Of a stretch of DNA of 64,000 nt, positions 13,953 through 28,650 are shown piece after piece; the stretch's first letter is position 1; each line of letters begins with the position of its first letter. Location: contig CAVXGR010000012.1 of the NCBI GenBank assembly GCA_963761335.1, forward strand, positions 512,001-576,000, given 5' to 3'. The DNA comes from an uncultured delta proteobacterium (GTDB taxonomy: Bacteria; Desulfobacterota; Binatia; HRBIN30; BPIQ01). The notes beneath the pieces were generated by a model. That model was not told the DNA's origin. It did not search any database and saw nothing but the letters and a program-made list of their open reading frames with translations. Made by a program: the position numbers and the translations under genes.

Positions 13953-15806
13953 TCAGCTGCGACTCGGATAGCGCCGGCGCATTTCCTCGAGCATCCACTC
14001 GCGCGCCGCGGCGTTGCCGGCGACCAGGGCCCGCAAGCGCTCGCGCGAGATGGCGTAGGTGATCATGTGCGTCATGGCGGTGACCGTGGCGGAGCGCACC
14101 GTATCCAGCAGCACGCCGCGCTCGCCGACGACGTCGTGCTCGCCGACCGACGCCACGCCCTTGCGCCCGATGGTAACCACGGCCTGGCCCTCCTCGATGA
14201 TGTAGCACTCGGGAGACTCGCCACCCTCCGTGCACAGGAGATCGCCGGGCTCGAAGCTCATCGGATACGCGGTCGCGGCGAGATGCTCGAGCTCCTCGGC
14301 GCTGCAAGGCGCGAACAGGCTGTTGCTCTGCAGCAGCCCGACCGTGGCCGCCAGGCGCGCGCCGGTGCGAACCGGGACGGAATCCTGCCGGGCCGGGTCG
14401 GTCTCGATGCGTTGCCGCAGCTCGGCGCGCCAGCGCAAGTCGGCACCGGTGTCACCGGCGCGCGGCCGCAGCCCGCGCTCGGCGTGCTCACCGGTTGACG
14501 CTGGGACAGGTGACTCCACCGCCGGCGCCGCCGCGACCGGCTCGGCACTCGCACGTGGACTCGATGACGTTCGGCAGGCGATGTTGAGGGCGGCGAGGCC
14601 GCGCAGCGTCAGACGGTCCTGAAAGCGCGGCTCTTCGCCGGCAAGCTCGATGTGATCGAAGCGCTGCAGCAGCGTGCGAAAGGTGATCTCGATCTCCGTC
14701 CGCGCCAGGGCCGCGCCGAGGCAGAAGTGCACGCCGCCCCCGAAGGTCAGCGGCTGGATGTCCGTGCGCGTCACGTCGAGCCGGTCGGGGTCGGAGAAGC
14801 GCGCCGGATCCCGATTTCCGGCGCCCAGCATGGCGAAGACCTGCTCGCCGGCGGGGATCGTCACCCCGCCGACCTCGACGCTGGCCTCGGTGACCCGGTT
14901 CGCCAGCTGCGCGGTGCCGTCGTAGCGCAGGAACTCATCCGGGAGGTTGGCGAACAGCGAGGCGTCGCGCCGCAGCAGCTCGAGCTGTTCCGGCTGGCGC
15001 AGCAACGCCAGCAAGCCGTTGCCGAACAGGTTGGTGGTGGTCTCGAACCCCGCCGCAAATAGCAGTGAGGCGAGGGTCACCAGCTCGTCGTCCGACAGGC
15101 GATCACCGCCGACCTCCGCCGTCGCCAGGGCGCTCAGCAGATCGCCCCCTGGCTGGCGTCGTTTCTCGGGGATCAGCTTCAGGAAGTAGGCGCGGATGCC
15201 GAGCTGTGCGGTGTCGGCCGCCACCATCTGCTCGTCCGTCGGCTGCATCTCGAAGATGGCCACCAGATCGCGCACCATGCCGCGGAACTGGGGCCGATCC
15301 GCCTCGGGGACGCCGAGCATTTCGCCGATGATCGTCACCGGAAGCGGAAAGCCGACGGCCTCGAGCACATTGCCGCCGCCGGCGTCGGCCACCGGATCGA
15401 GCAGCCGGTCGACGACGCGCTCGATGGTCGGCTTGAGGTTCTCGATCATGCGCGGCGTGAACGACTTGGTGACCAGCTTGCGCAGACGCGTATGCTCCGG
15501 CCCGGTGGTGTTGAGCATGGAGTGCTCGCCGGCCGTCAGCGACGGATGCTTTCGCCAGCCGGGCCCGAAGCGCTGCTCGATCTGCGGCGCGTAGTCCTTG
15601 CCGAGACGCGGATCGCGCATCGCCGCCCAGCAATCGTCGTAACGGCTGAGCAGCCACATCCCCATCTGGGTGCGATGCACCGGCGCTGTCTGGCGGAGCT
15701 GGTGGTAGAGCGGGTACGGATTGGCGCGCCCTTCGGCCGTTAGGAACAGCTTGTTGAACACCGCTTCTGCATCGCTCGGCATGGATTCGTGTGCCTCGCT
15801 GGTCAT
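13953..15806 (-). CDS. Cytochrome P450 fused to a C-terminal cyclic-nucleotide-binding domain
   Basis: P450: HTRLRKLV, AAGFETT, EFLR, NRDP..F, FGGGVHFCLG. After an Ala/Pro linker, cNMP domain: LF..., FEPGDLLCTEG, YIIEEG, VGERGVL...RSATV. Confidence 0.9.
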   Translation of the reverse strand: MTSEAHESMPSDAEAVFNKLFLTAEGRANPYPLYHQLRQTAPVHRTQMGMWLLSRYDDCWAAMRDPRLGKDYAPQIEQRFGPGWRKHPSLTAGEHSMLNTTGPEHTRLRKLVTKSFTPRMIENLKPTIERVVDRLLDPVADAGGGNVLEAVGFPLPVTIIGEMLGVPEADRPQFRGMVRDLVAIFEMQPTDEQMVAADTAQLGIRAYFLKLIPEKRRQPGGDLLSALATAEVGGDRLSDDELVTLASLLFAAGFETTTNLFGNGLLALLRQPEQLELLRRDASLFANLPDEFLRYDGTAQLANRVTEASVEVGGVTIPAGEQVFAMLGAGNRDPARFSDPDRLDVTRTDIQPLTFGGGVHFCLGAALARTEIEITFRTLLQRFDHIELAGEEPRFQDRLTLRGLAALNIACRTSSSPRASAEPVAAAPAVESPVPASTGEHAERGLRPRAGDTGADLRWRAELRQRIETDPARQDSVPVRTGARLAATVGLLQSNSLFAPCSAEELEHLAATAYPMSFEPGDLLCTEGGESPECYIIEEGQAVVTIGRKGVASVGEHDVVGERGVLLDTVRSATVTAMTHMITYAISRERLRALVAGNAAAREWMLEEMRRRYPSRS

Positions 15807-16595
15807 GTCGATCCCCCTATAACCGCGCACCTCGCCTACCTGGATCAGGGCCGCATGCCGCGCGGTGTCCCATGCCCCCCGGGTTCCATCCGGCGAACAT
15901 AGAACAGGCGGGAGAGCGAAAGCCAATCACGCAGACGAGGCAGAGGCCCGCAGCGAGCGGCGCCGCACGCCAAACGCGGCGACCGCGACCAGCAGAGCCG
16001 CCAGGGCAATCAGCCCCCAGCGCGATGCCGCCGGGGCGCTCGCCGACACCGGCAACGCCGGGCCACCGGGATCGACGATCATGCCGTCGCCGGCGGGCGT
16101 ATCGTCGCCGAGTTGGCCGTTGGTCAGCTTGAAGGTCGCCGTCGCCACCGTCGAACCCGTCGCCGGCGGGATCTGCGCCGTGCCAAAGGTCGCAGCGGGC
16201 AACGCGTAGAATTGGGGCGTGTCGAAGCCCGGCGGGATTGGTCCGAACTTCCGATACGCCGTCAGCGGCAGGAAGAACGGCTCGTGGAAGATCAGGGTCA
16301 CGTCGACGCTGGTGGCGCAATCGAGCTGGAAACCCACCATGCCGTACGGGTAGTCGTACTTCGAATCGGTGCCCAACGACGCCTCGCTCGCGGCGTGGAC
16401 CTCTTGCAGCCCACTGCAACCGCCGTTGTCCGCAGGGACCTCGACGGTGATGTACCCCTGCCCGGTCGCGGATGTCAGCGACGCGACGTTGCCCTGCTGG
16501 CTGTCCATGGTGCCGTCGCCGTTGCCGTCGCCGCCGTTCGGCCCGACGTCCTCCACCGCGTCCGGCACGCCGTCCTGGTCGGAGTCCATGGGGAT

Positions 16596-18994: not shown

Positions 18995-20436
18995 CTAATT
19001 GATTATCCGGTAGACAATGGTGTAGTCGAATTTCGCAACGCGGCGGTACCGATCACTGTTGTCCGCGATAGGGATCAGCGCGTCATAAGGGGGGTACGTC
19101 GGCAGGACGATCCAATCGTTCGCGGCTCTCTTCACCAGAACGGCGAAATGCCCTTTCATTCTCGTCGAATTGCTCCACGACCTCGTAAGCACGCACGCCC
19201 TTCAGGTTGCCGTAGAAGATCAACGAGCGCGTATTGGGGGTGGCGACACGCCCCTCCGGGATTGTCGCCACGACACGGCCCCACTCCTGCGTATAGATCG
19301 CATCACGCCAGTCGAGACAGCGGCCCATCGCCGGATAGACACCGTACGCCTCGAAGTTCGGCACCAATAGACCAATGAGCCCCACCGCCGCGATAGCCGC
19401 CCGCCAAGCATTGCGTTGAACCTGAAAATGACTGACCACGCTTTCGTACAACTTCACGAGCCCGGCGACGCCGAGAACGATCAAGATCGGCAGAAAGGGC
19501 ACGAGGTATCGCTGGAAAGGGATCAAAACAGAACGTGGAGAGCAGAAACAACACACACAGCAGGAGGGTCGGCTGAAGTGCCTTTTGCCGGCGCTGGACG
19601 AACAGAAAGCAGATCCCTCCTCCCAGCAGTCCAAGCGAAAGCTGTCGCAGCATGTTGAGCCAATGAAACTCCCACCACCGCAGCCCGCTGACTCGGCTGG
19701 CGTGAAAGGCCAAGCCTTGCGCCGCTATCACAATCCACGGGGAATAGGCCGCGACGTACAGCGCCACTGTGCCGGCGACCTTTCTCCAATCGCCGTCATA
19801 CCGACGATAGTAGAAGAGCAAGAGTGAGGGCGCGAGATAGAAACCGAAATAATGGGTATAGATCGCGCCGAGAAAGCCACTGGCGATGCATCGTTCGTTG
19901 CCGGACATCAGGCCGTAGACGCAGAGAGTCACAAAGAACGTCAGCATGGCGTACATGGTCGCGGCCTGGGCATATTGCTGATGCAACACATTGAACGTGA
20001 GCAGCGCCGTTGCCCCGAGCGCGGCCCAGTGGGACAGCAGACGCCGGCCAAGAAAATATGTCAAAACGATCGTTGCCCCCGCAAACAACACGGAGGGAAG
20101 CCGCATCGAGACCTCCGCGTAGCCCACCATCCGCCCCCAAGCGGCGAGAAGAAGATAGTGCGCCGGTGGGTGCCGAAAGAAAATGGGATCCGGATAGAAG
20201 TCGCTGTGAAAAGGGTGCTGCGCAAGGTTGACGTATACCGCTTCATCATAAAAGAAGGGCGGCCCGAGGTGCCGGGCGCGAACGGCGACGCCGATGAGAA
20301 CGAGTGCCACGAGCCCGAGAAGTTCTCGGCCTCGGAGAGATTTCACGAGCGGCTGCGTTTCTTCCCCAAGCACGGCGCCGCTATCCCGGCGGCCGATCTT
20401 CGCGTACTTGGTTAGCAGGCGAATTGCGAGGAGCAC
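18995..20436 (-). pseudogene. Membrane GT-C glycosyltransferase (ArnT/PMT, GT39-like), frameshifted
   Basis: PFFYDEAVY, HPPAHYLLL, RLPSVL, YTHYFG, many TM segments; frame changes near 19510 and 19160; visibly more AT-rich than its flanks. Confidence 0.75.
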
Positions 20437-20769
20437 AAGCCGAAGCTCGGCCTACAGCCGCGGCGAGCCGCTCGCAGATTCGTATACCGCAGAACGACGG
20501 CGCGCTCCTTTCTTGGTGTCCGCCGGCGATCGACGTCCCCTCTATCCATCCGCAGGAATGGAAATCGCCGGGGAAACTCATTCCCGACATCGATACGAAG
20601 ACGCGCCGCCGCGGCGGCGGACTCGGGTTGGACAGCTCGCGGCCCGGCATTTGCTTACGCTTCCGGCGTCCGCTTGGACGCCAAGGTGGTGGTTGGCGCG
20701 CTGCGCGGCGATGCGACCCGTCAGACGGGTCGCAAGCCGAGCAGCGCGCCAACGAGAGGGAGTGGAACG

Positions 20770-23700
20770 ATGCCGCAAGCACAGGTCCGCTGCGCAGATC
20801 TCGCCGACGACGACACCGCGGTCGGGCTATCGGTGCTGAACATCCAGCGCACCTGCGTCCACGACGGTCCGGGTATCCGCAGCACGGTCTTCTTTCGCGG
20901 CTGCAACATGCGCTGCAGGTGGTGCCACAACCCGGAAGCGCAGCGGTTCGTTCGCCGCGACGACCGCGCCAGCCGCTGCTCGGTTGCGGAGGTCGTCCGG
21001 GCGGTGCGACGAGACCGGGAGTACTATCGCCACACGCACGGCGGCGTGACCCTGAGCGGAGGGGAGCCGCTGCTCCAGGACCAGGCGAGCCTGGTGAAAT
21101 TGCTCGCGGCGCTGAAAGAGGAAGGGATCGAAGTCGTTATCGAAACTGCGGGCGACGTTCCCTGGCGGGCCTTCCAGGCGTCATTGCCGTTCGTCGATCT
21201 ATTTCTGTTCGATCTCAAGGCGGTCGGCGACGATGCCCTGCATCTCCAGCTGACGGGACGGCCGCGACGGCGGGTCGCGGAAAACATCGCGCGTTTGGTT
21301 GGTGCCGGCGCCAAGGTTCGCTTCCGCATGTGCGTGGTCGCCAGCCTGAACGATTCGCCGGCGAATCTCGAAGCGGTGGCGGCTTTGTTGCACTCGCTCC
21401 GCTGTCCGCGCATCGAGCTGCTGCGCTACTACGACATGCACGAGCAGAAGGCCGCGCACTTCCACCTCGCCCAGGAACCGCTGCACATCACCGCCGAGGA
21501 GAGCGCCGCGGCGCTCGAACGAACGGCCCAGACGCTGACATCGTTGGGAATCGCGGTCGAGCACACCGGTGCGCCGGCCATGCGCCCAACGCCCGCATTC
21601 ACCCAGCGCGTCCACGAGCTGCAGAGGGCCATCCGCGACAGCGGCTATGCCGTCTGCCTCGAATCGGCGCGGCTCAAGACGGCATTCCACAAGACGCACG
21701 GCTTCCACGGCCCGCTCGCGGTGCAGCGCGCGAATTTGCTGCGCCACCTGCTGAACGAGAAGACCGTGGCGGTCTATCCGCACGAGCTGTTGGTCGGCAA
21801 CTTCACCGCAAAGCGGGTCGGCGGCAATGTCTGGCCGGAGTATTTCGGCACCGCCATGGCGGTGAACCTGTGGCGCATCGACCGCCAGAAGCCGGTGGCG
21901 TTCAAATGCTCGCTGGCGGACAAGCTGGCGTTCTACTTCGGCATCCTGCCCTTCTGGATCAGGCACGGGCTCGTCGCCCATGCTTTTCCGTCGCTGCGGC
22001 AGCTCGCGTCCTTCATGGCGCGCACGATCGAGCAACGCGTCGCCTTCAACAACAACATGGCGGCCATCGCTCACTTCATCGTCAATACCGAACGCCTACT
22101 GAAGCTTGGAACCAGCGGGATTGCCGAGGAGGTGAAGGCGCAGCAGCGTGAGAAGCGCGGTGCCGATGACGGCTTCTACGACGGCGTGCTCATCGCTCTC
22201 GCGGCCGTGGAGGCCTTCGCGGAGCGCTACGCCAAGCTCCTGGGCCAGATCCGCCGCCGCGAAGCCGATCCGCAGCGGCGAGCGGAGCTCGAGGCGATGC
22301 GGGAGGTCTGTGGCCGTGTGCCGAAACATCCAGCGCGCAGCTTCCATGAAGCACTGCAGAGCATCTTGTTCATGCACGTGGCGCTGTGCACCGAGTCCTT
22401 CGAGAACGCCATCTCACTCGGTCGGCTCGATCGCGTCCTGCATCCATACTACGCGGCCGACGTTGCCGCCGGCCGTCTCGACTACGACGCAGCCAAGGAG
22501 TTGCTGGCCTGCTTCATCCTGAAGCTGGACGAGATCGTGCTTCTCAACGACGGCGACACCGCCTTCCAGCTCGGCAAGCTCTTCGAGAGCCTGTCGCCGG
22601 TCGAGACGGTCACCATCGGCGGCGTCGATCCGGCGGGCAGGGATTCCACCAACGACGTCACCTACATGATCCTGGACATCTGCGAGCTGCGACCGATCGG
22701 GGTCAACATGGCGGCGCGCATTCACCGCCAGAGCCCGGACGAGTACGTGCGCCGGATCGCCGAGGTCTACCTGAACGGCTCGCCGATGCCGGCACTCTTC
22801 AATGACGGGGTCTACATCCCGGCGCTGCGCAAGCGCTACCCCACCCGGCTCGAGGAGGCGCGCAACTACGGAATCGTCGGCTGCGTCGAGCCGGTCGCCT
22901 CGGAGGATCACTTCGGCAACACCGACGCCGCCAACATCAACGTCGTCATTCCCTTTCTCCAGGCCCTGCAGGGCGACGAGCGACCCCTTTGGGCATACGG
23001 CGCCTTCGGCGAACTCGACCAGAAGGCCCGGCGGCTGCTCGGCTCGGCGATGTGGCGCCGAGGCGGCGCAGCGGCAAACCAGAATGGGTCGCGCCGACGC
23101 CCGCCGGCAACCATCGACGCCCTGATGAAGCGCTTCGGGGCGCGTCTCGACGAAGTCGTCGCCGCCGTCTTGGCCGACCAGCAGCGCATCGAGACGGCGC
23201 TGGCGCGCCATCTCACCACGCCGCTGGCATCCTCGCTCTTTCCCGGATGCGTCGCCTCGGGAAAGGATGCCTACGAAGGCGGCGCGACGTTCAACAGCAG
23301 CGGCATCCAAGCCGTCGGCGTCACCGACGTCGCCGATTCGCTCGTTGCCATCGACGAGGTCGTCTACCGCAGGAATCTCTACGCCATCGAAGACGTGCTG
23401 CAGGCCATCGATGCCAACTTCGAGGGCGAACGCCATGGGGACATTCGACAGGCGCTGCTCGCCGCACCCAAGTTCGGCGATGACACCGCGGTCGAGGCGC
23501 ACCAGTGGATGAATCGAGTCATGGAGCTATACGTGAAGGCGCTGAGCCGGGTCGCGCATCCATCCCGCAACGGCACGTATGTAGCCGGCTACTACGGGTT
23601 GAACGTGAACCGGGTGTACGGCGCCAGGACCCCCGCTCTGCCGTCGGGCCGGCGCCGCGGCGAGCCGCTGGCCAACAGTATCTGCCCGCATTTCGGCATG

Positions 23701-24066
23701 CAGATGATGGACCTGACCTCGGCGCTGAACGCCATTGCACGGGTCGACTTCGCGAGCTTCGCCCCCAACGGCACCACGGTGACGTCGACCATTGATGGCG
23801 CGCTTTTCCCCGGCAACAGCGGCAGCCGCAACCTCGCGGGCGTGATTCGCGGCTTCTTCGCGCAGGGGGGGATGCAGCTCCAGCCGAACCTGGTGAGCCG
23901 CGAGATTCTCCTCGATGCCTACAACCACCCGGGAAAGTACAAGGATCTCGTGGTCCGGATCGCCGGCTACTGCGGCTACTTCGACAATCTCTCGGATGAG
24001 CTGAAACGCGAGATCATCGAGCGCACCTACCACACCGCAAAGCTCGGCTCGACGGCCGGCCTCTGA
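20770..24066 (+). CDS. Fusion of glycyl-radical activating enzyme (radical SAM) and glycyl radical enzyme (PFL family)
   Basis: N-terminus: NIQR..VHDGPGIRSTVFFRGCNMRCRWCHNPE (CX3CX2C), GGVTLSGGEP, ETAG, DLK. C-terminus: ELLVG, SLGRLD, Cys loop IVGCVEP, APKFGDD, PSGR..GEPLA, PNG, Gly loop LVVRIAGY. GAGGG RBS before ATG 20770. Confidence 0.9.
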   Translation: MPQAQVRCADLADDDTAVGLSVLNIQRTCVHDGPGIRSTVFFRGCNMRCRWCHNPEAQRFVRRDDRASRCSVAEVVRAVRRDREYYRHTHGGVTLSGGEPLLQDQASLVKLLAALKEEGIEVVIETAGDVPWRAFQASLPFVDLFLFDLKAVGDDALHLQLTGRPRRRVAENIARLVGAGAKVRFRMCVVASLNDSPANLEAVAALLHSLRCPRIELLRYYDMHEQKAAHFHLAQEPLHITAEESAAALERTAQTLTSLGIAVEHTGAPAMRPTPAFTQRVHELQRAIRDSGYAVCLESARLKTAFHKTHGFHGPLAVQRANLLRHLLNEKTVAVYPHELLVGNFTAKRVGGNVWPEYFGTAMAVNLWRIDRQKPVAFKCSLADKLAFYFGILPFWIRHGLVAHAFPSLRQLASFMARTIEQRVAFNNNMAAIAHFIVNTERLLKLGTSGIAEEVKAQQREKRGADDGFYDGVLIALAAVEAFAERYAKLLGQIRRREADPQRRAELEAMREVCGRVPKHPARSFHEALQSILFMHVALCTESFENAISLGRLDRVLHPYYAADVAAGRLDYDAAKELLACFILKLDEIVLLNDGDTAFQLGKLFESLSPVETVTIGGVDPAGRDSTNDVTYMILDICELRPIGVNMAARIHRQSPDEYVRRIAEVYLNGSPMPALFNDGVYIPALRKRYPTRLEEARNYGIVGCVEPVASEDHFGNTDAANINVVIPFLQALQGDERPLWAYGAFGELDQKARRLLGSAMWRRGGAAANQNGSRRRPPATIDALMKRFGARLDEVVAAVLADQQRIETALARHLTTPLASSLFPGCVASGKDAYEGGATFNSSGIQAVGVTDVADSLVAIDEVVYRRNLYAIEDVLQAIDANFEGERHGDIRQALLAAPKFGDDTAVEAHQWMNRVMELYVKALSRVAHPSRNGTYVAGYYGLNVNRVYGARTPALPSGRRRGEPLANSICPHFGMQMMDLTSALNAIARVDFASFAPNGTTVTSTIDGALFPGNSGSRNLAGVIRGFFAQGGMQLQPNLVSREILLDAYNHPGKYKDLVVRIAGYCGYFDNLSDELKREIIERTYHTAKLGSTAGL

Positions 24067-24077
24067 TTCTCATCGCC

Positions 24078-24594
24078 CGCGGTGGAGTGGAGGCCCACGG
24101 CTCCGAGGTGTTGGCGCGCGCCGCCGCCTCCGGCTCGCGCATCGCCGAACGGCGGCTCTCCTCTCCCGATGCGCGCGGCTTGCTGGAAGGCCTGCGCCAC
24201 GCCCGCGACGCGGACGTGGTGAGCCTGCAATCACCGCTCTCGGCCGAGTCCATCCGCCTGCTCTTCCGGGTGTCGGATGCCGTGCTCGCCAACAGCGGTC
24301 ACGAGCCCTTCGGCCTCGTCGGTCCCGAGGCGATGGCGGCAGGAGGTCCTCGCCTGCACGGGGAGCACGGGAGAGGACTACGCCGTCGCCGGTTGGAACG
24401 CCTTGGTGCTGCAGAGCAACGATCCGCGCGAGTTCGTCGCCTACTACCACAGGTTGAAGACCGACGCGGGCGAAGAGTCGGCCCTGCGCCGCCGCGGGCG
24501 TCGCACGGCGGCGCGCTACGCCTGGTCGCAGGTGCTGCAGCGCAACATCCTGCCGGCATTGCACTTCCCCCGGCCGAAGCAGGTCGGCGCGTAG
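24078..24594 (+). pseudogene. C-terminal fragment of a GT4 glycosyltransferase, frameshifted
   Basis: DAVLANSGHEPFGLVG.EAMAAG then, after a frameshift, ACTGSTGEDYA; no N-terminal domain. Confidence 0.7.
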
Positions 24595-24918: not shown

Positions 24919-25293
24919 GTCACTCGCCTTCCATGTCGAGACATCGCGTCTCTCGAGCGTCTGAAAGTCCTTTTGCGTCTACAGCAATTTAAGGCGAGTG
25001 GATAGACCGCAGAATTACGCGAGTAGAACTACTCGGTAGCCGCCAGGCTGCATGCTTTTCGCCGGCTGTGTAGGCAGACAGCGTTTCCGGCGCAGGGCGA
25101 ACGATCCCCTCCCGACTCTGAGAACGGGCCACCCGACGGCGGGCAGGAACGCATTGGCGGCAAGCCGGCGGCAAATTTGCAGGAGGTCCGGCCCCGGCGC
25201 CGACCGGGTTCCCGAGCCCGAGATTGACCCATGCCTGCCCGCCATCCCCACAACGACCACCAATCCCTCGGCCACAGGCGCAACGGTAGAGCG

Positions 25294-25948
25294 GTGCCGC
25301 TGAAGCTGGTCACCTCCGCACCGCAACGAGTCACGTCGCAATCCGACCTCATCCCGTCCGTGTGTCTGGCCGTCTTCACAGCTCTGTGGGTCGGCCTCGC
25401 GATCGAGCCCCGCTACCCAGAGGACTGGCTGCTGGAAAATCTCCTCACCTTCGCCTGCGTACCGGCCGCCGTCTTGACGTATCGGCGCTTTCGCTTCACC
25501 GATCAGGCCTACGTCCAGGCCGCGCTCTTCCTGATCCTGCATATTGTCGGCAGCCACTACACATACTCGCACGTGCCGCTCGGCGACTGGGCGCTGGATG
25601 TCTTTGGCTTCTCCCGCAATCACTACGACCGCCTGGTGCCACTTCTCCTTCGGCGTATTGATGCTGCGGCCGATGCGTGAGCTCGTCATCCGCCGGCCGC
25701 GCGCGCTCGGGCGCACTGCGCTGTTCTTCCTGAGCTTTGCCACGATCGCCTGCGCCAGCCTCGGCTACGAGATGCTCGAGTGGTTGGTGGCGGCGGTGGT
25801 CGATCCATCCGCCGGAACCGCCTACCTCGGCACCCAGGGGGACGTCTGGGACGCACAGAAGGACTCGGCCTGCGCCTCCGCTGGCGCGCTCATTGCCACG
25901 GCCATCGACGGCTGGCAGCTACGCGCCGAGACCCGGACTGCAGAATGA
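25294..25948 (+). pseudogene. DUF2238/YjdF inner-membrane protein, frameshifted near 25640
   Basis: DWLLEN, HIVGSHYTYSHVPLG, RNHYDRLV/HFSFG, YEMLEW, YLGTQGDVWDAQKD. Start approximate. Confidence 0.8.
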
Positions 25949-26488: not shown

Positions 26489-28650
26489 GTGGGCCTCGTT
26501 TGGGTAATTCCGTTCTCCGCCCTGCTCTCCCTGGGCTTCGTCGCATACCTGGCCTGGGATGTCCTGCGGTCCGACAGCGGTACCCCGGAGATGCGGGCGG
26601 TGAGCGACATGGTCTACGAAGGAGCGGTCGCCTTCATCAAGAGGCAGTACACGACGATCGGTGCCATGGCGCTGGTCACGGCTGTCCTCATCGCGGTGCT
26701 GGTCGCCCATTTCGAGAGCTTCTCGGAGACGGCTATCACCGGCTGGCCGCTCGGGATTCGCACCGGCATCGCCTTCTTGGTCGGGGCTGCGGTCAGTACC
26801 CTCAGCGGCATCATCGGCATGTACGTCGCGGTCAAATCGAACGTGCGTACCGCGAGCGCCGCGGGCGGCGGCGTGGGGCCGGCGCTGCGCATGGCCCTCC
26901 GCGGCGGCGCCGTGAGCGGCTTTCTGGTCGTGACGCTGTCGCTCCTCGGCGTGTACGGAATGTTTCTCCTCTACGGTGGGCGCACCGCGCCGCAGCACGC
27001 TCCCTTCCTCATCGTCGGCATGGGCTTCGGCGCCAGCTTCGTGGCGCTGTTCGCTCAGCTGGGCGGCGGCATCTACACCAAGGCGGCAGACGTCGGCGCC
27101 GACCTCGTCGGCAAGGTCGAAGCGGGCATTCCCGAGGACGATCCGCGCAATGCCGGTGTGATCGCTGACCTGGTCGGCGACAACGTGGGCGACTGCGCCG
27201 TCGCGGAGCCGACCTCTTCGAGTCGACAGTCGCCGAGAACATCGGCGCCATGATTCTGGGCGTCACCCTGTTCACCGCCACGCACCGCGTCGAGTGGATC
27301 CTCTTTCCGCTCGTCGTGCGGGCCTGCGGGCTCATCGTCTCCATCGCCGGCGTCTTTGCCACGACCGCCTTCCCCGGGCTGAAATACCGGCCGGGAGAGG
27401 AGCCGACGCGGGCGCTCTATCGGGGATTTGCCGTGTCGGCCGGGCTTGCGGCGCTCTCGCTCTGCGCCGTGGAGGAATCGATGCTCGGCGTCAGGTGGTT
27501 CGCAGCTGCGGGGCTGATCGGCCTGCTCACCAGCGTGGTCTTCGTGCTGATCACCATGTACTACACGGAGGCGGGCTTCTCTCCGGTCCAGTCGATCGTG
27601 CACGCCAGCTTGCGCGGAGCCGGCCCCACCATCATCACTGGGCTCGCGGTGGGCTTCGAGAACGCCGCGGCCCCGGTGCTGACGATCGCCCTCGCCCTGA
27701 TCGGCTCCTACTACTGCGGCACTCAAGCGGCACCCGGTCTGCACGTCTCCGCCTACCAGGGAGGAGTGTACGGAACCGCAGTAGCGACCATGGGCATGCT
27801 CATGCCGGCGGCTTTCATTCTGGCGATGGACACCTTTGGTCCGATCGTCGACAACGCCGGCGGCATCGTGGAGATGGCCGGCGCCTCAGAGGAGATCCGG
27901 CGCGCTACGGACGCCTTGGACGCCGCCGGCAACACCACCAAGGCGCTCACCAAGGGTTACGCCATCAGCTCGGCCGCGCTGGCGGCATTTCTGCTCTTCA
28001 GCGCTTACCTCGACAAGGTCGAGCTCATCCGGCGTGCGCTCGGGCGACCCGCTGCCGAGATCGCCGCCTCGCACACGGTCGACATCGGGAAGATTACCGT
28101 CTTCATCGGCGCGATGATCGGCGTCATGCTGATCTTCCTGTTCAGCTCGCTGGCGTTGCGCGCCGTCAGCAAGACCGCGGAGCGGATCATCAAGGAGGTC
28201 CGGCGCCAGTTCCGGGAGATTCCCGGCCTGCTGGCGGGGACGGGGCGGCCGGATTACGCGCGCGCCGTCGACATCACCACGCGCGGCGCATTGCGCGCCA
28301 TGATCGCCCCGGGATTGCTGGCACTGGGCGTGCCGATCATCGCCGGCGTCGTGCTCGGGGCCGAGGCCGAGGCCGCGCTGCTGATGGTCGGGACGATCAG
28401 CGGAATCGTCCTCGCCTGCGTGATGAACAACAGTGGCGGTGCGTGGGACAACGCCAAGAAGTACATCGAGGTGCACGGCGTGCGGGACGACCAGGGGCAT
28501 ATGCAGGGCAAAGGCAGCGACGCCCACAAGGCGTCCGTGGTCGGCGACACCGTCGGCGCTCCGTTCAAGGATACCGCCGGCCCATCCCTGCACGTCCTGA
28601 TCAAGCTGTTGTCCACGATCACCCTGGTGCTCGCCGCCCTGTTCATCTGA
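26489..28650 (+). pseudogene. hppA: Membrane-bound H+-translocating pyrophosphatase, predicted K+-independent; frameshift near 27200
   Basis: GGIYTKAADVGADLVGKVE, EDDPRN, DLVGDNVGD, GNTTKA, GGAWDNAKK. One G is missing in the GDCAGRGADLFE segment. Confidence 0.9.

Follow-up and report, generated by a model that had tools for sequence, protein, structure and literature searches.

The window analyzed here is a stretch of 64,000 nucleotides from an uncultured delta proteobacterium of the class Binatia (assembly GCA_963761335.1, contig CAVXGR010000012.1, positions 512,001 to 576,000). It carries a gene whose single product of 1098 amino acids combines a radical S-adenosylmethionine (SAM) activating enzyme, or activase, with the oxygen-sensitive kind of enzyme that such activases, normally separate proteins, switch on, a glycyl radical enzyme (GRE). 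The reading favored here, and judged probable, is that the fusion is real and that the activase domain serves to activate the GRE to which it is joined, a member of the class bearing a Cys-X-Glu (CXE) motif in its cysteine loop. That the fusion itself is real and conserved in many uncultured anaerobes can be regarded as almost certain from the comparison of homologs. Judged from the same sequences, the fused form is that of a widespread family, with fused sister clades too, and is not peculiar to this gene.

The gene was noticed in a first-pass annotation made by a model from the letters of the DNA, which had claimed a single open reading frame of about 1098 amino acids. Indeed, no internal stop interrupts positions 20770-24066 of the forward strand, and the product matches four Pfam domains in succession, Fer4_12 (residues 32-126), Radical_SAM (40-196), PFL-like (279-951; PFL, pyruvate formate-lyase) and Gly_radical (971-1071). 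All the motifs claimed for it are present as well: HDGPGIR at residue 31, CNMRCRWC at 45-52, SGGEP at 96, the hydrophobic segment LAFYFGILPFWI at 386, GCVEP at 704 and RIAGY at 1063.

The strongest evidence for a genuine fusion comes from two surveys of homologs. A word-indexed search of 5.8 billion proteins, in which candidates of 603-1922 amino acids were considered and the best 120 clusters listed, returned sequences that are 52-70% identical to the query and mostly 1002-1156 amino acids long, with the exception of a 633-residue fragment that is 97% identical (P0089). Radical_SAM and PFL-like domains are both present in 117 of these best 120 clusters and the four Pfam domains together in 111. 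The three clusters with no recorded Radical_SAM domain are N-terminally short proteins of 917-1029 amino acids, still longer than a lone GRE, and no cluster of the size expected for a split enzyme (about 800 amino acids) is found among the best 120. The search for full-length homologs with the same domain order that the first-pass annotation had proposed thus finds them unsplit. The second survey considered one genome per species (GTDB) and detected encoded relatives at 135 of 155 pattern matches. Of these 135, 80 were kept; nearly all of them align from about residue 20 to about residue 1089. These 80 relatives, all from metagenome-assembled genomes, are distributed over seven named phyla: Thermodesulfobacteriota (23, including 17 Syntrophales, Smithella), Bacillota (20, Christensenellales and other Clostridia), Spirochaetota (17), Myxococcota (12), and Bdellovibrionota, Bacteroidota and Promethearchaeota (Asgard) with one each, to which five unplaced 'delta proteobacteria' must be added. 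One database name at JGI, 'pyruvate-formate lyase/pyruvate-formate lyase-activating enzyme', indicates that automated annotation had seen both halves.

An alignment of 59 family members, with the window protein as query, points to constraint on both halves. The mean identity to the query is 54.7% in the activase half and 63-66% in the GRE parts, and the invariant columns amount to 31 of 248 in the former and 164 of 812 in the latter. Among the residues that are invariant in all 59 sequences are D32-G33-P34-G35, R37, C45, C49, C52, S96-G97-G98, H435, C705-V706-E707-P708, D719, R1063, A1065, G1066 and C1068. The junction between the two halves (residues 262-279) measures 17-18 residues in 58 of the 59 members, the only outlier having 50. 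Within it, the linker proper keeps its length and not its sequence: none of its 13 columns is invariant and their mean identity is 31%. It aligns with the C-terminal tail of the activase and the N-terminal tail of the GRE in the unfused gene pairs described below.

The obvious alternative is an artefact, in which adjacent activase and GRE genes would have been joined by an assembly indel error at the junction. Several observations weigh against the favored reading on this point. Public sequencing reads were consulted as short, low-depth Logan contigs, which came from three metagenome runs on soil (shares 0.23-0.36) and from a metatranscriptome run on sediment. None of these contigs spans positions 21540-21620, where no indel is listed either, and a contig of run X1 does not resemble the window upstream of 21575. 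Because the public reads fail to bridge the junction cleanly, the integrity of the frame in this particular copy has to be argued entirely from homology. Two frameshifted genes, an H+-pyrophosphatase split at about 27250 and a truncated DUF2238 gene, lie close by in the same assembly, and a single frameshift would suffice to fuse the gene pairs of the nearest unfused relatives. Against this, a contig of run X2 covers 21365-21586 with nine differences and no gap, and the junction contains neither an in-frame stop nor a start signal: as claimed in the first-pass annotation, no purine-rich site that could serve for ribosome binding is seen in the 24 bases that precede the internal ATG at 21580 (GTCGAGCACACCGGTGCGCCGGCC). 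A further argument of the same annotation, that both other plus frames are stop-free from 21569, holds for about 180 and 580 nucleotides only, one frame having stops at 21536 and then at 21752 and the other being stop-free from 20600 to 22149; it carries little weight because the DNA is 66% G+C (62-74% in 2-kb steps along the window). What decides the question is the conservation of the both-domain architecture. The same continuous frame occurs in homologs of 50-70% identity from independent assemblies and several phyla, and at species-representative loci as well. Since these fused relatives come from many assemblers, a shared indel error is excluded, and the joining of two genes by error in the window is given a vanishingly small probability. 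The claim of one true polypeptide is therefore upheld. A contig of 214 nucleotides from the RNA library covers 21756-21966, which is no proof of transcription, and a scan of 20300-24500 for promoters and terminators found nothing above shuffled sequences.

The whole chain was modeled with AlphaFold2 on the 59-member alignment, with a mean predicted local distance difference test (pLDDT) of 86.9 and a predicted template modeling score (pTM) of 0.89. Low confidence is limited to residues 1-16, to a variable insert at about 741-780 and to the last ten residues; the linker itself has a pLDDT of 72-84. The whole-chain pTM suggests that the two domains dock in a defined way. Among solved chains, none extends over both halves, the Foldseek TM-score normalized to the query being at most 0.67. 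The hydrophobic segment LAFYFGILPFWI, to which the first-pass annotation had drawn attention, is present and belongs to an ordinary core helix. This helix (residues 382-399) is modeled with confidence (pLDDT 86-90), its counterpart in the alignment with glycerol dehydratase is an ordinary N-terminal one, and this core position rules out the role of membrane anchor that was considered for it.

The activase half (residues 18-265) is complete. Its model superposes on the Escherichia coli PFL activating enzyme (PFL-AE, or PflA; 3cb8_A) with a Z-score of 29.1 and a root mean square deviation (rmsd) of 2.2 A over 240 of 244 residues at 28% identity (VIA-align). The predicted cluster-binding triplet and the SGGEP motif are in place, and the GGE motif binds SAM. 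Like E. coli PflA (3cb8/3c8f), this is a single-domain radical-SAM activase with a CX3CX2C motif and no auxiliary clusters; unlike it, it is joined to a CXE-type GRE and not to PFL. In PFL-AE the cluster ligands are C29, C33 and C36, and a ferredoxin-like insert contributing eight extra cysteines is typical of the activases of other GREs, according to the accessible text of the 2026 review by Imrich et al. (PMC13450708). Three results bear out the claim of a complete activase devoid of this insert: the full-length fold match, the complete absence of the CX2CX2CX3C motif in the 59 family members, and the match to TIGR02494 (PFLE_PFLC, GRE activases), which scores 203.1 bits above a cut-off of 174.35 and is made of two stretches that skip profile positions 40-101, the site of the insert. 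The PflA equivalog model TIGR02493 remains below its own cut-off (143.3 bits versus 231.75). Because the ferredoxin-type model outscores the PflA model, and because fused sister proteins keep the insert, the activase is best described as a ferredoxin-type enzyme that lost its insert and not as a PflA ortholog.

The second half of the protein shows three hallmarks of the PFL-like branch of GREs, namely a barrel domain, a glycine-radical domain of the RxxG[YF] type and a catalytic cysteine on the Cys loop. The match to PF02901 (PFL-like) has an E-value of 1.7e-131 and runs from profile position 3 to 647 of 647. Residues 270-1089 match best the structures of propanediol dehydratase (9rco, Z-score 50.5) and glycerol dehydratase (1r8w, 49.5), with 769 residues aligned to each at 30% identity, followed by CutC, HypD and the PFL2 protein of Archaeoglobus fulgidus (47-49). 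The Cys loop places the protein in the CXE class: Glu707 stands two residues after Cys705 and is invariant. The Gly loop follows the pattern [VI]R[IV]AG[YF]C[AGS] in the 59 members. Two residues past the predicted radical glycine, every fused family member aligned has a cysteine (Cys1068, 23971-23973); unfused sisters have RVSGY. Past the Cys loop, a segment that corresponds to residues 735-790 varies from 40 to 91 residues across the family.

None of the characterized families accommodates this GRE. Solved structures are at most 31% identical to it, no NCBIfam equivalog cut-off is reached, those of HypD, CutC, HpfG, HpsG and PRK09983 included (the best being HpfG with 344.6 bits versus 1000), and none of the 58 nearest representatives at 50% identity reaches that of any equivalog. 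The claim that the GRE lies outside the characterized families is thus confirmed and, on these comparisons, the protein is a CXE-class GRE of an uncharacterized clade. An elimination that acts on a substrate of the diol or polyol type is a slightly favored guess, dehydratase-type elimination being the likeliest chemistry that the sequence indicates and glycerol an unlikely substrate.

The arguments for and against this assignment can be followed residue by residue. By hand count on the phmmer alignment, the query keeps five residues of glycerol dehydratase: His164 (His435), Cys433 (Cys705), Glu435 (Glu707), Asp447 (Asp719) and Tyr640 (Tyr942). The glycerol pocket includes His281, Ser282, Tyr339 and Asp447, with Asp447 binding the substrate. 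By the same count, His281 is changed to Asn, Ser282 to Ala and Tyr339 to Val, so that three of the six positions compared (His164, His281, Ser282, Tyr339, Glu435 and Asp447) differ, and the replacing residues, Asn546 and Ala547, do not vary within the family. Because of these three differences, the chemistry could be of an undescribed kind. The accessible text of the review (PMC13450708) assigns to the cysteine of GRE eliminases the role of a hydrogen-abstracting thiyl radical, to the CXE motif's glutamate that of a base at the substrate hydroxyl, and to His164 of glycerol dehydratase that of a proposed proton donor to the leaving hydroxyl. According to the same source, GRE isomerases also keep the CXE motif. 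CXE alone is thus no proof of an eliminase, since the isomerases share it, and the association of GC(V/L)E with eliminases made in the first-pass annotation stands as far as a CXE-class, eliminase-like loop is concerned and fails where it would set eliminases apart. Together with the unreached equivalog cut-offs, the altered pocket and the shared motif, a further point tells against a simple dehydratase. The subfamily model of PFL2 and glycerol dehydratase, TIGR01774, gives 492.2 bits versus a cut-off of 678.2, a threshold that the nearest relatives (P0125-P0128, P0131 and P0132) do not attain either.

The main competitor at the level of chemistry is accordingly a self-activating fusion that is not a 1,2-eliminase and that catalyzes a ring-opening or isomerase-type reaction (as YbiW, PflD or HplG) or one of an undescribed class. 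Besides the shared CXE motif, such an enzyme would agree with the fold matches to PflD and YbiW, whose Z-scores of 44-46 are nearly as good as those of the dehydratases (about 50), with the long stem branch of the family and its score below the subfamily cut-off, and with the genes of sugar or inositol type found at some Clostridia loci, which encode AP_endonuc_2 barrels, KduI/IolB proteins, glycoside hydrolases and MFS_2 transporters. It is nevertheless considered rather unlikely. The best matches in sequence and in fold are the glycerol and propanediol dehydratases, the counterpart of His164 is invariant, and genes for an aldehyde:ferredoxin oxidoreductase and for an Fe-alcohol dehydrogenase adjoin the fused gene at three loci each.

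Comparison with solved relatives refines the picture of a dehydratase-like but distinct enzyme. Glycerol dehydratase of Clostridium butyricum (1r8w) and propanediol dehydratase (9rco, 5i2a/5i2g) are the best sequence matches among solved structures (326-352 bits); they share the CXE loop and the GRE fold, with an rmsd of 2.2-2.3 A. The query differs from them by an identity of only about 28-30%, by the variable insert past the Cys loop and by the fusion of the activase at its N-terminus, theirs being a separate protein. PFL2 of A. fulgidus (2f3o) is comparably close (339 bits, Z-score 47.2, 31% identity), and its loop ENYEQAISMGRID resembles the ESFENAISLGRLD of the query at the position of His281 and Ser282 of glycerol dehydratase; unlike the query, the solved chain is a GRE only, of 776 residues. 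The function of this protein is debated, as stated in the accessible text of PMC13450708.

According to the mechanism proposed, a flavodoxin or ferredoxin of the cell would reduce by one electron the [4Fe-4S] cluster held by Cys45, Cys49 and Cys52, and the reduced cluster would cleave the bound SAM to give a 5'-deoxyadenosyl radical. This radical would take a hydrogen atom from Gly1066, either within its own chain or on the other chain of the GRE dimer that is expected, and the glycyl radical would in turn produce a thiyl radical on Cys705. The latter would take a hydrogen atom from a hydroxylated substrate while Glu707 deprotonates the substrate hydroxyl; His435 would then protonate the leaving group. 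The net result would be a 1,2-elimination, in the likeliest case a dehydration that yields an aldehyde or a ketone.

That the activase domain activates its own GRE is rated quite probable, and the gene inventory of the genome (6.26 Mb in 29 contigs, 99% complete) is instrumental for this assessment. The fused protein is its only PFL-like GRE. No match to NrdD (PF13597) was detected in the genome, and no other PflA-like match exceeds 46 bits, so that, with no other PFL-like GRE, NrdD or intact activase encoded, the fused protein has no visible partner and its activase no other target. The only other activase-like gene, on another contig (L002, 216 amino acids), corresponds to the N-terminal half of an activase of the ferredoxin type and ends soon after its SGGEP region; it is preceded, behind a stop, by about 45 residues left over from the C-terminus of a GRE, RVTGY loop included, and hydrolase genes flank it. 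This relic shares 46-51% identity with the activases of the unfused pairs and with that of the fused sister P0125 (see below), and on sequence criteria the locus (positions 1396-2200 of L002, reverse strand) is a decayed canonical GRE/activase pair.

The alternative would be an activase domain that is vestigial, regulatory or devoted to another target, the GRE being activated by a separate enzyme. Self-activation of this protein is, after all, read from its sequence, a second activase-like fragment does exist in the genome, and tethering offers no obvious advantage: with PFL in vitro, a 1:1 ratio of activase to GRE speeds up not only the installation of the radical but also its loss, according to the accessible text of PMC13450708. 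This alternative is nevertheless held to be very unlikely. The cluster and SAM motifs are invariant in the 59 sequences, the activase fold is complete, the genome offers no other intact enzyme of either kind, and the second activase-like gene is truncated and adjoins a decayed GRE tail. By analogy with PFL, and as a speculation, a permanent 1:1 tether may trade the persistence of the radical for quick activation or reactivation.

The features discussed above are collected in the following table.

Features of the fused activase-GRE gene (positions in the window; residues in the product)
Feature	Positions	Strand	Basis
Shine-Dalgarno-like GGGAG, 7 nt 5' of ATG 20770	20758..20762	+	read from sequence; function inferred
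Fused gene, activase + linker + GRE, 1098 amino acids + stop	20770..24066	+	continuous frame, four Pfam domains, full-length homologs
Activase domain of the radical-SAM type, PFL-AE-like and lacking the ferredoxin insert, residues 18-265	20821..21564	+	TIGR02494 match, fold superposition
HDGPGIR motif, residues 31-37	20860..20880	+	sequence; D32, G33, P34, G35 and R37 invariant in 59
CX3CX2C (C45, C49, C52), predicted ligands of the SAM-binding [4Fe-4S] cluster	20902..20925	+	invariant in 59/59; analogy with PFL-AE
SGGEP motif, residues 96-100	21055..21069	+	sequence; S96, G97 and G98 invariant
Linker, residues 266-278 (13 residues), constant length, variable sequence	21565..21603	+	59-member alignment, model
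Glycyl radical enzyme domain, residues 279-1090	21604..24039	+	PF02901, PF01228, fold match
His435, counterpart of glycerol dehydratase His164	22072..22074	+	hand count on phmmer alignment; invariant in 59
Cys loop GCVEP: Cys705 predicted thiyl site, Glu707 predicted CXE base	22879..22893	+	invariant; aligns with glycerol dehydratase Cys433/Glu435
Asp719, counterpart of glycerol dehydratase Asp447	22924..22926	+	alignment; invariant
Family-specific variable insert, residues 737-785	22978..23124	+	pLDDT 42-67, 29.5% mean identity, unaligned with glycerol dehydratase
Gly loop RIAGY, Gly1066 predicted radical site, Cys1068 after it	23956..23970	+	R1063, A1065, G1066 and C1068 invariant

The origin of the fusion was approached through the evolutionary neighbors of its GRE domain. 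An exhaustive HMMER search of 1.84 billion representatives with this domain retrieved 1540 proteins at an E-value of at most 1e-30. Among the best 150 of them, an N-terminal activase is found in the query family (P0123, and P0122, which is short at its 5' end) and in four further proteins, P0125, P0164, P0132 and P0126, the first 125 residues of the latter matching the C-terminal part of an activase domain. The sisters P0125/P0164 and P0132 (1095-1136 amino acids) share the domain order and the clade of the query, with GREs that are 34-42% identical to its own. Unlike the query family, they retain an insert of about 50 residues, which carries two CX2CX2CX3C motifs each in P0125 and P0132, and the gap of the query family falls exactly at this insert. 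In a tree of 29 rows (IQ-TREE, LG+G4, with support from the Shimodaira-Hasegawa-like approximate likelihood-ratio test, SH-aLRT), the 11 fused rows and one unfused row, P0128 (808 amino acids), form a clade with a support of 98; the query family has a support of 100 and a stem of 0.64 changes per site. A FastTree tree of 90 rows agrees. The placement in a GRE tree that had been suggested in the first-pass annotation puts the protein within a well-supported clade of fused forms and P0128. At least two changes between the fused and the unfused state are needed on the 29-row tree. Forcing the fused rows together to the exclusion of P0128, a grouping named after the tree had been seen, costs 21 log-likelihood units (approximately unbiased test, p-AU 0.0095); the rejection of this grouping implies that fusion or fission occurred more than once.

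Unfused relatives of the P0128 type can be observed in the order to which the window belongs. Among 52 genomes of this order, a fused ortholog occurs in three, namely the window genome itself, G026 (68% identity) and G023 (77-83%), the copy of the latter being disrupted by a frameshift within its GRE part. Four of the 52 genomes encode a GRE of the P0128 type, 805-822 amino acids long, 37-40% identical to the query and 64-66% identical to P0128. In three of the four (L089, L090 and L091), the stop codon of a ferredoxin-type activase gene overlaps the start codon of the GRE gene as ATGA, the upstream activase frames having 310 (L089), 309 (L091) and, with an upstream extension, 462 amino acids (L090). 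These pairs have the gene order, the clade and the GCVEP Cys loop of the query. They differ from it in consisting of two polypeptides, in the CX2CX2CX3C motif of their activase, in their RVSGY Gly loop (R[IV]AGYC in the query family) and in a GRE that is 37-38% identical. Because stop and start codons overlap, such a coupled pair is a single frameshift away from fusion. In the fourth genome, G023 (L088, 3555-3971), the GRE gene of the P0128 type keeps the ATGA; the upstream frame of 138 amino acids is not an activase. The same genome carries six further GRE matches beside its frameshifted fused ortholog and this GRE.

On the basis of these relationships, the simplest scenario that can be proposed is a stepwise one. 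An activase gene followed by a GRE gene, with overlapping ATGA stop and start codons, would have become fused within this clade, and the two-cluster ferredoxin insert would then have been lost on the long branch leading to the query family. The loss of the insert after fusion is the probable order of events as judged from the sequences, and a loss fits better than a descent from PflA because the activase scores 203 bits with the ferredoxin-type model versus 143 with the PflA model. A broader scenario is regarded as unlikely, in which tethering made the ferredoxin domain dispensable, the fused GRE installs its radical and re-installs it after quenching with no partner, in a manner suited to fluctuating oxygen, and the split and fused states interconvert repeatedly.

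Other N-terminal additions were encountered among the GREs retrieved. Two proteins of 939-943 amino acids (P0143 and P0148) bear an N-terminal SCP2 sterol/lipid-carrier domain. Eight others of 984-1024 amino acids (P0154, P0171, P0173, P0201, P0227, P0237, P0242 and P0248) are extended at the N-terminus by about 190-240 residues that match no Pfam domain and lack a CX3CX2C motif; the first four of them form a clade with a support of 100 in the FastTree tree.

Synteny provides few clues to the substrate, which is a further point against a precise assignment. Neighborhoods were inspected at 81 loci, with at least 3 kb available upstream in 54 and downstream in 50; of 135 neighbor proteins, six were left out of the domain scan for their size, one of which was scanned later. 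No general operon partner and no consistent pathway emerge across these 81 loci. At 16 loci of the Syntrophales type, the commonest neighbor, a GntR/FadR-type regulator, is encoded immediately upstream in the same orientation. Less frequent are MFS_2 transporters (8), FAD oxidoreductases (6), DUF2238 proteins (6), metallophosphoesterases in three clusters (5, 4 and 1 loci), GDPD proteins (4) and PI-PLC-type proteins (4), beside the two aldehyde-related enzymes mentioned above. The latter fit an aldehyde-forming eliminase and are a lead at most. Genes of the phosphodiesterase, inositol-like and sugar type may point in turn to a head-group or polyol substrate, again as a lead only; no substrate claim is made from the phosphodiesterase and inositol-like genes because they are confined to a few Clostridia loci. 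At two Clostridia-type loci (L079 and L080), the fused gene is followed by a methyl-transfer module composed of a corrinoid (B12-binding) protein, a RACo-type reductive activator and a URO-D-family methyltransferase.

In the window itself, the only neighbor that recurs at other loci is the DUF2238 membrane-protein gene located 1.2 kb downstream of the fused gene (25231-25680, forward strand). It covers only profile positions 2-65 of 140 and is hence truncated or frameshifted; intact DUF2238 genes stand near the fused gene at five Smithella-type loci (L026, L035, L036, L037 and L038). The statement in the first-pass annotation that transporter and microcompartment genes are missing from the vicinity is thus correct for the microcompartment, since no shell gene (PF00936) is found in the 99%-complete genome, and needs to be qualified by this truncated membrane-protein gene. 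The locus of an 83%-identical ortholog (L010) shares no flanking gene with the window, which indicates that the fused gene travels alone. Further downstream, the H+-pyrophosphatase (PF03030) is split over two forward frames, 26489-27253 and 27250-28650, that match profile positions 2-210 and 231-645; the apparent frameshift near 27250 may be due either to a pseudogene or to an assembly indel error. On the other side, a reverse-strand frame of 657 amino acids (13953-15926), which overlaps other long frames, pairs a cytochrome P450 match, unusually, with a domain for cyclic-nucleotide binding at its C-terminus. This P450 gene, 5 kb upstream of the fused gene, is a sign that the genome encodes oxygen-dependent metabolism and hints at an organism that meets oxygen.

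With respect to the literature, the accessible text of Imrich et al. (PMC13450708) states that each GRE has its own activase and that a ferredoxin-like domain of unknown function is present in most activases, the exceptions being PFL-AE and the activating enzyme of the anaerobic ribonucleotide reductase (RNR-AE). The premise of the first-pass annotation that this activase is encoded separately does not quite hold, since eukaryotic NrdD-NrdG fusions are a precedent. These class III RNRs, reported from fungi and oomycetes, combine a GRE and a radical-SAM activase in one frame, as the query does, an arrangement that the accessible text of Lundin et al. (2010, PMC3019208) reads as an aid to the expression of a transferred operon. 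They differ from the query in having the enzyme first and in belonging to the RNR-like branch; in the query the activase comes first and the GRE belongs to the PFL-like branch. No description of a natural fusion between a PFL-like GRE and its activase was found in the open-access literature, supplements aside, and the accessible text of the 2026 review (PMC13450708) contains no occurrence of fused, fusion, single polypeptide, self-activ or bifunctional. A single-chain activase-GRE among the PFL-like enzymes is thus apparently unstudied. The novelty is tempered by the fact that the architecture is visible in public databases and that the NrdD-NrdG fusions precede it. What is new here are the fused sisters that keep the insert, the unfused kin coupled by ATGA, the repeated fusion or fission and the inventory of a genome with a single GRE.

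This family may be useful well beyond the organism in which it was noticed. The only structural view of an activase at its GRE is that of PFL-AE with a peptide of seven residues, in which C-alpha of the glycine stands 3.9 A from C5' of SAM, and insoluble activases and unstable GRE:activase interfaces are described as the main bottleneck of the field, for which the design of stabler interfaces has been proposed (accessible text of PMC13450708). A natural one-chain activase-GRE with a short linker of fixed length constitutes a ready 1:1 complex for cryo-electron microscopy or crystallography. The fused protein also allows a clean test of activation in cis versus in trans, and could serve as a template for engineered self-activating GREs. 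The presence of an insert-free fused family beside fused and unfused sisters that keep the insert permits, in addition, a direct comparison of the role of this insert; if tethering did make it dispensable, the ferredoxin domain would serve to find or hold the partner GRE and not for the chemistry. Finally, the family is found in Smithella-type syntrophs, spirochaetes, Christensenellales and soil Myxococcota, and an unrecognized anaerobic transformation may hide here.

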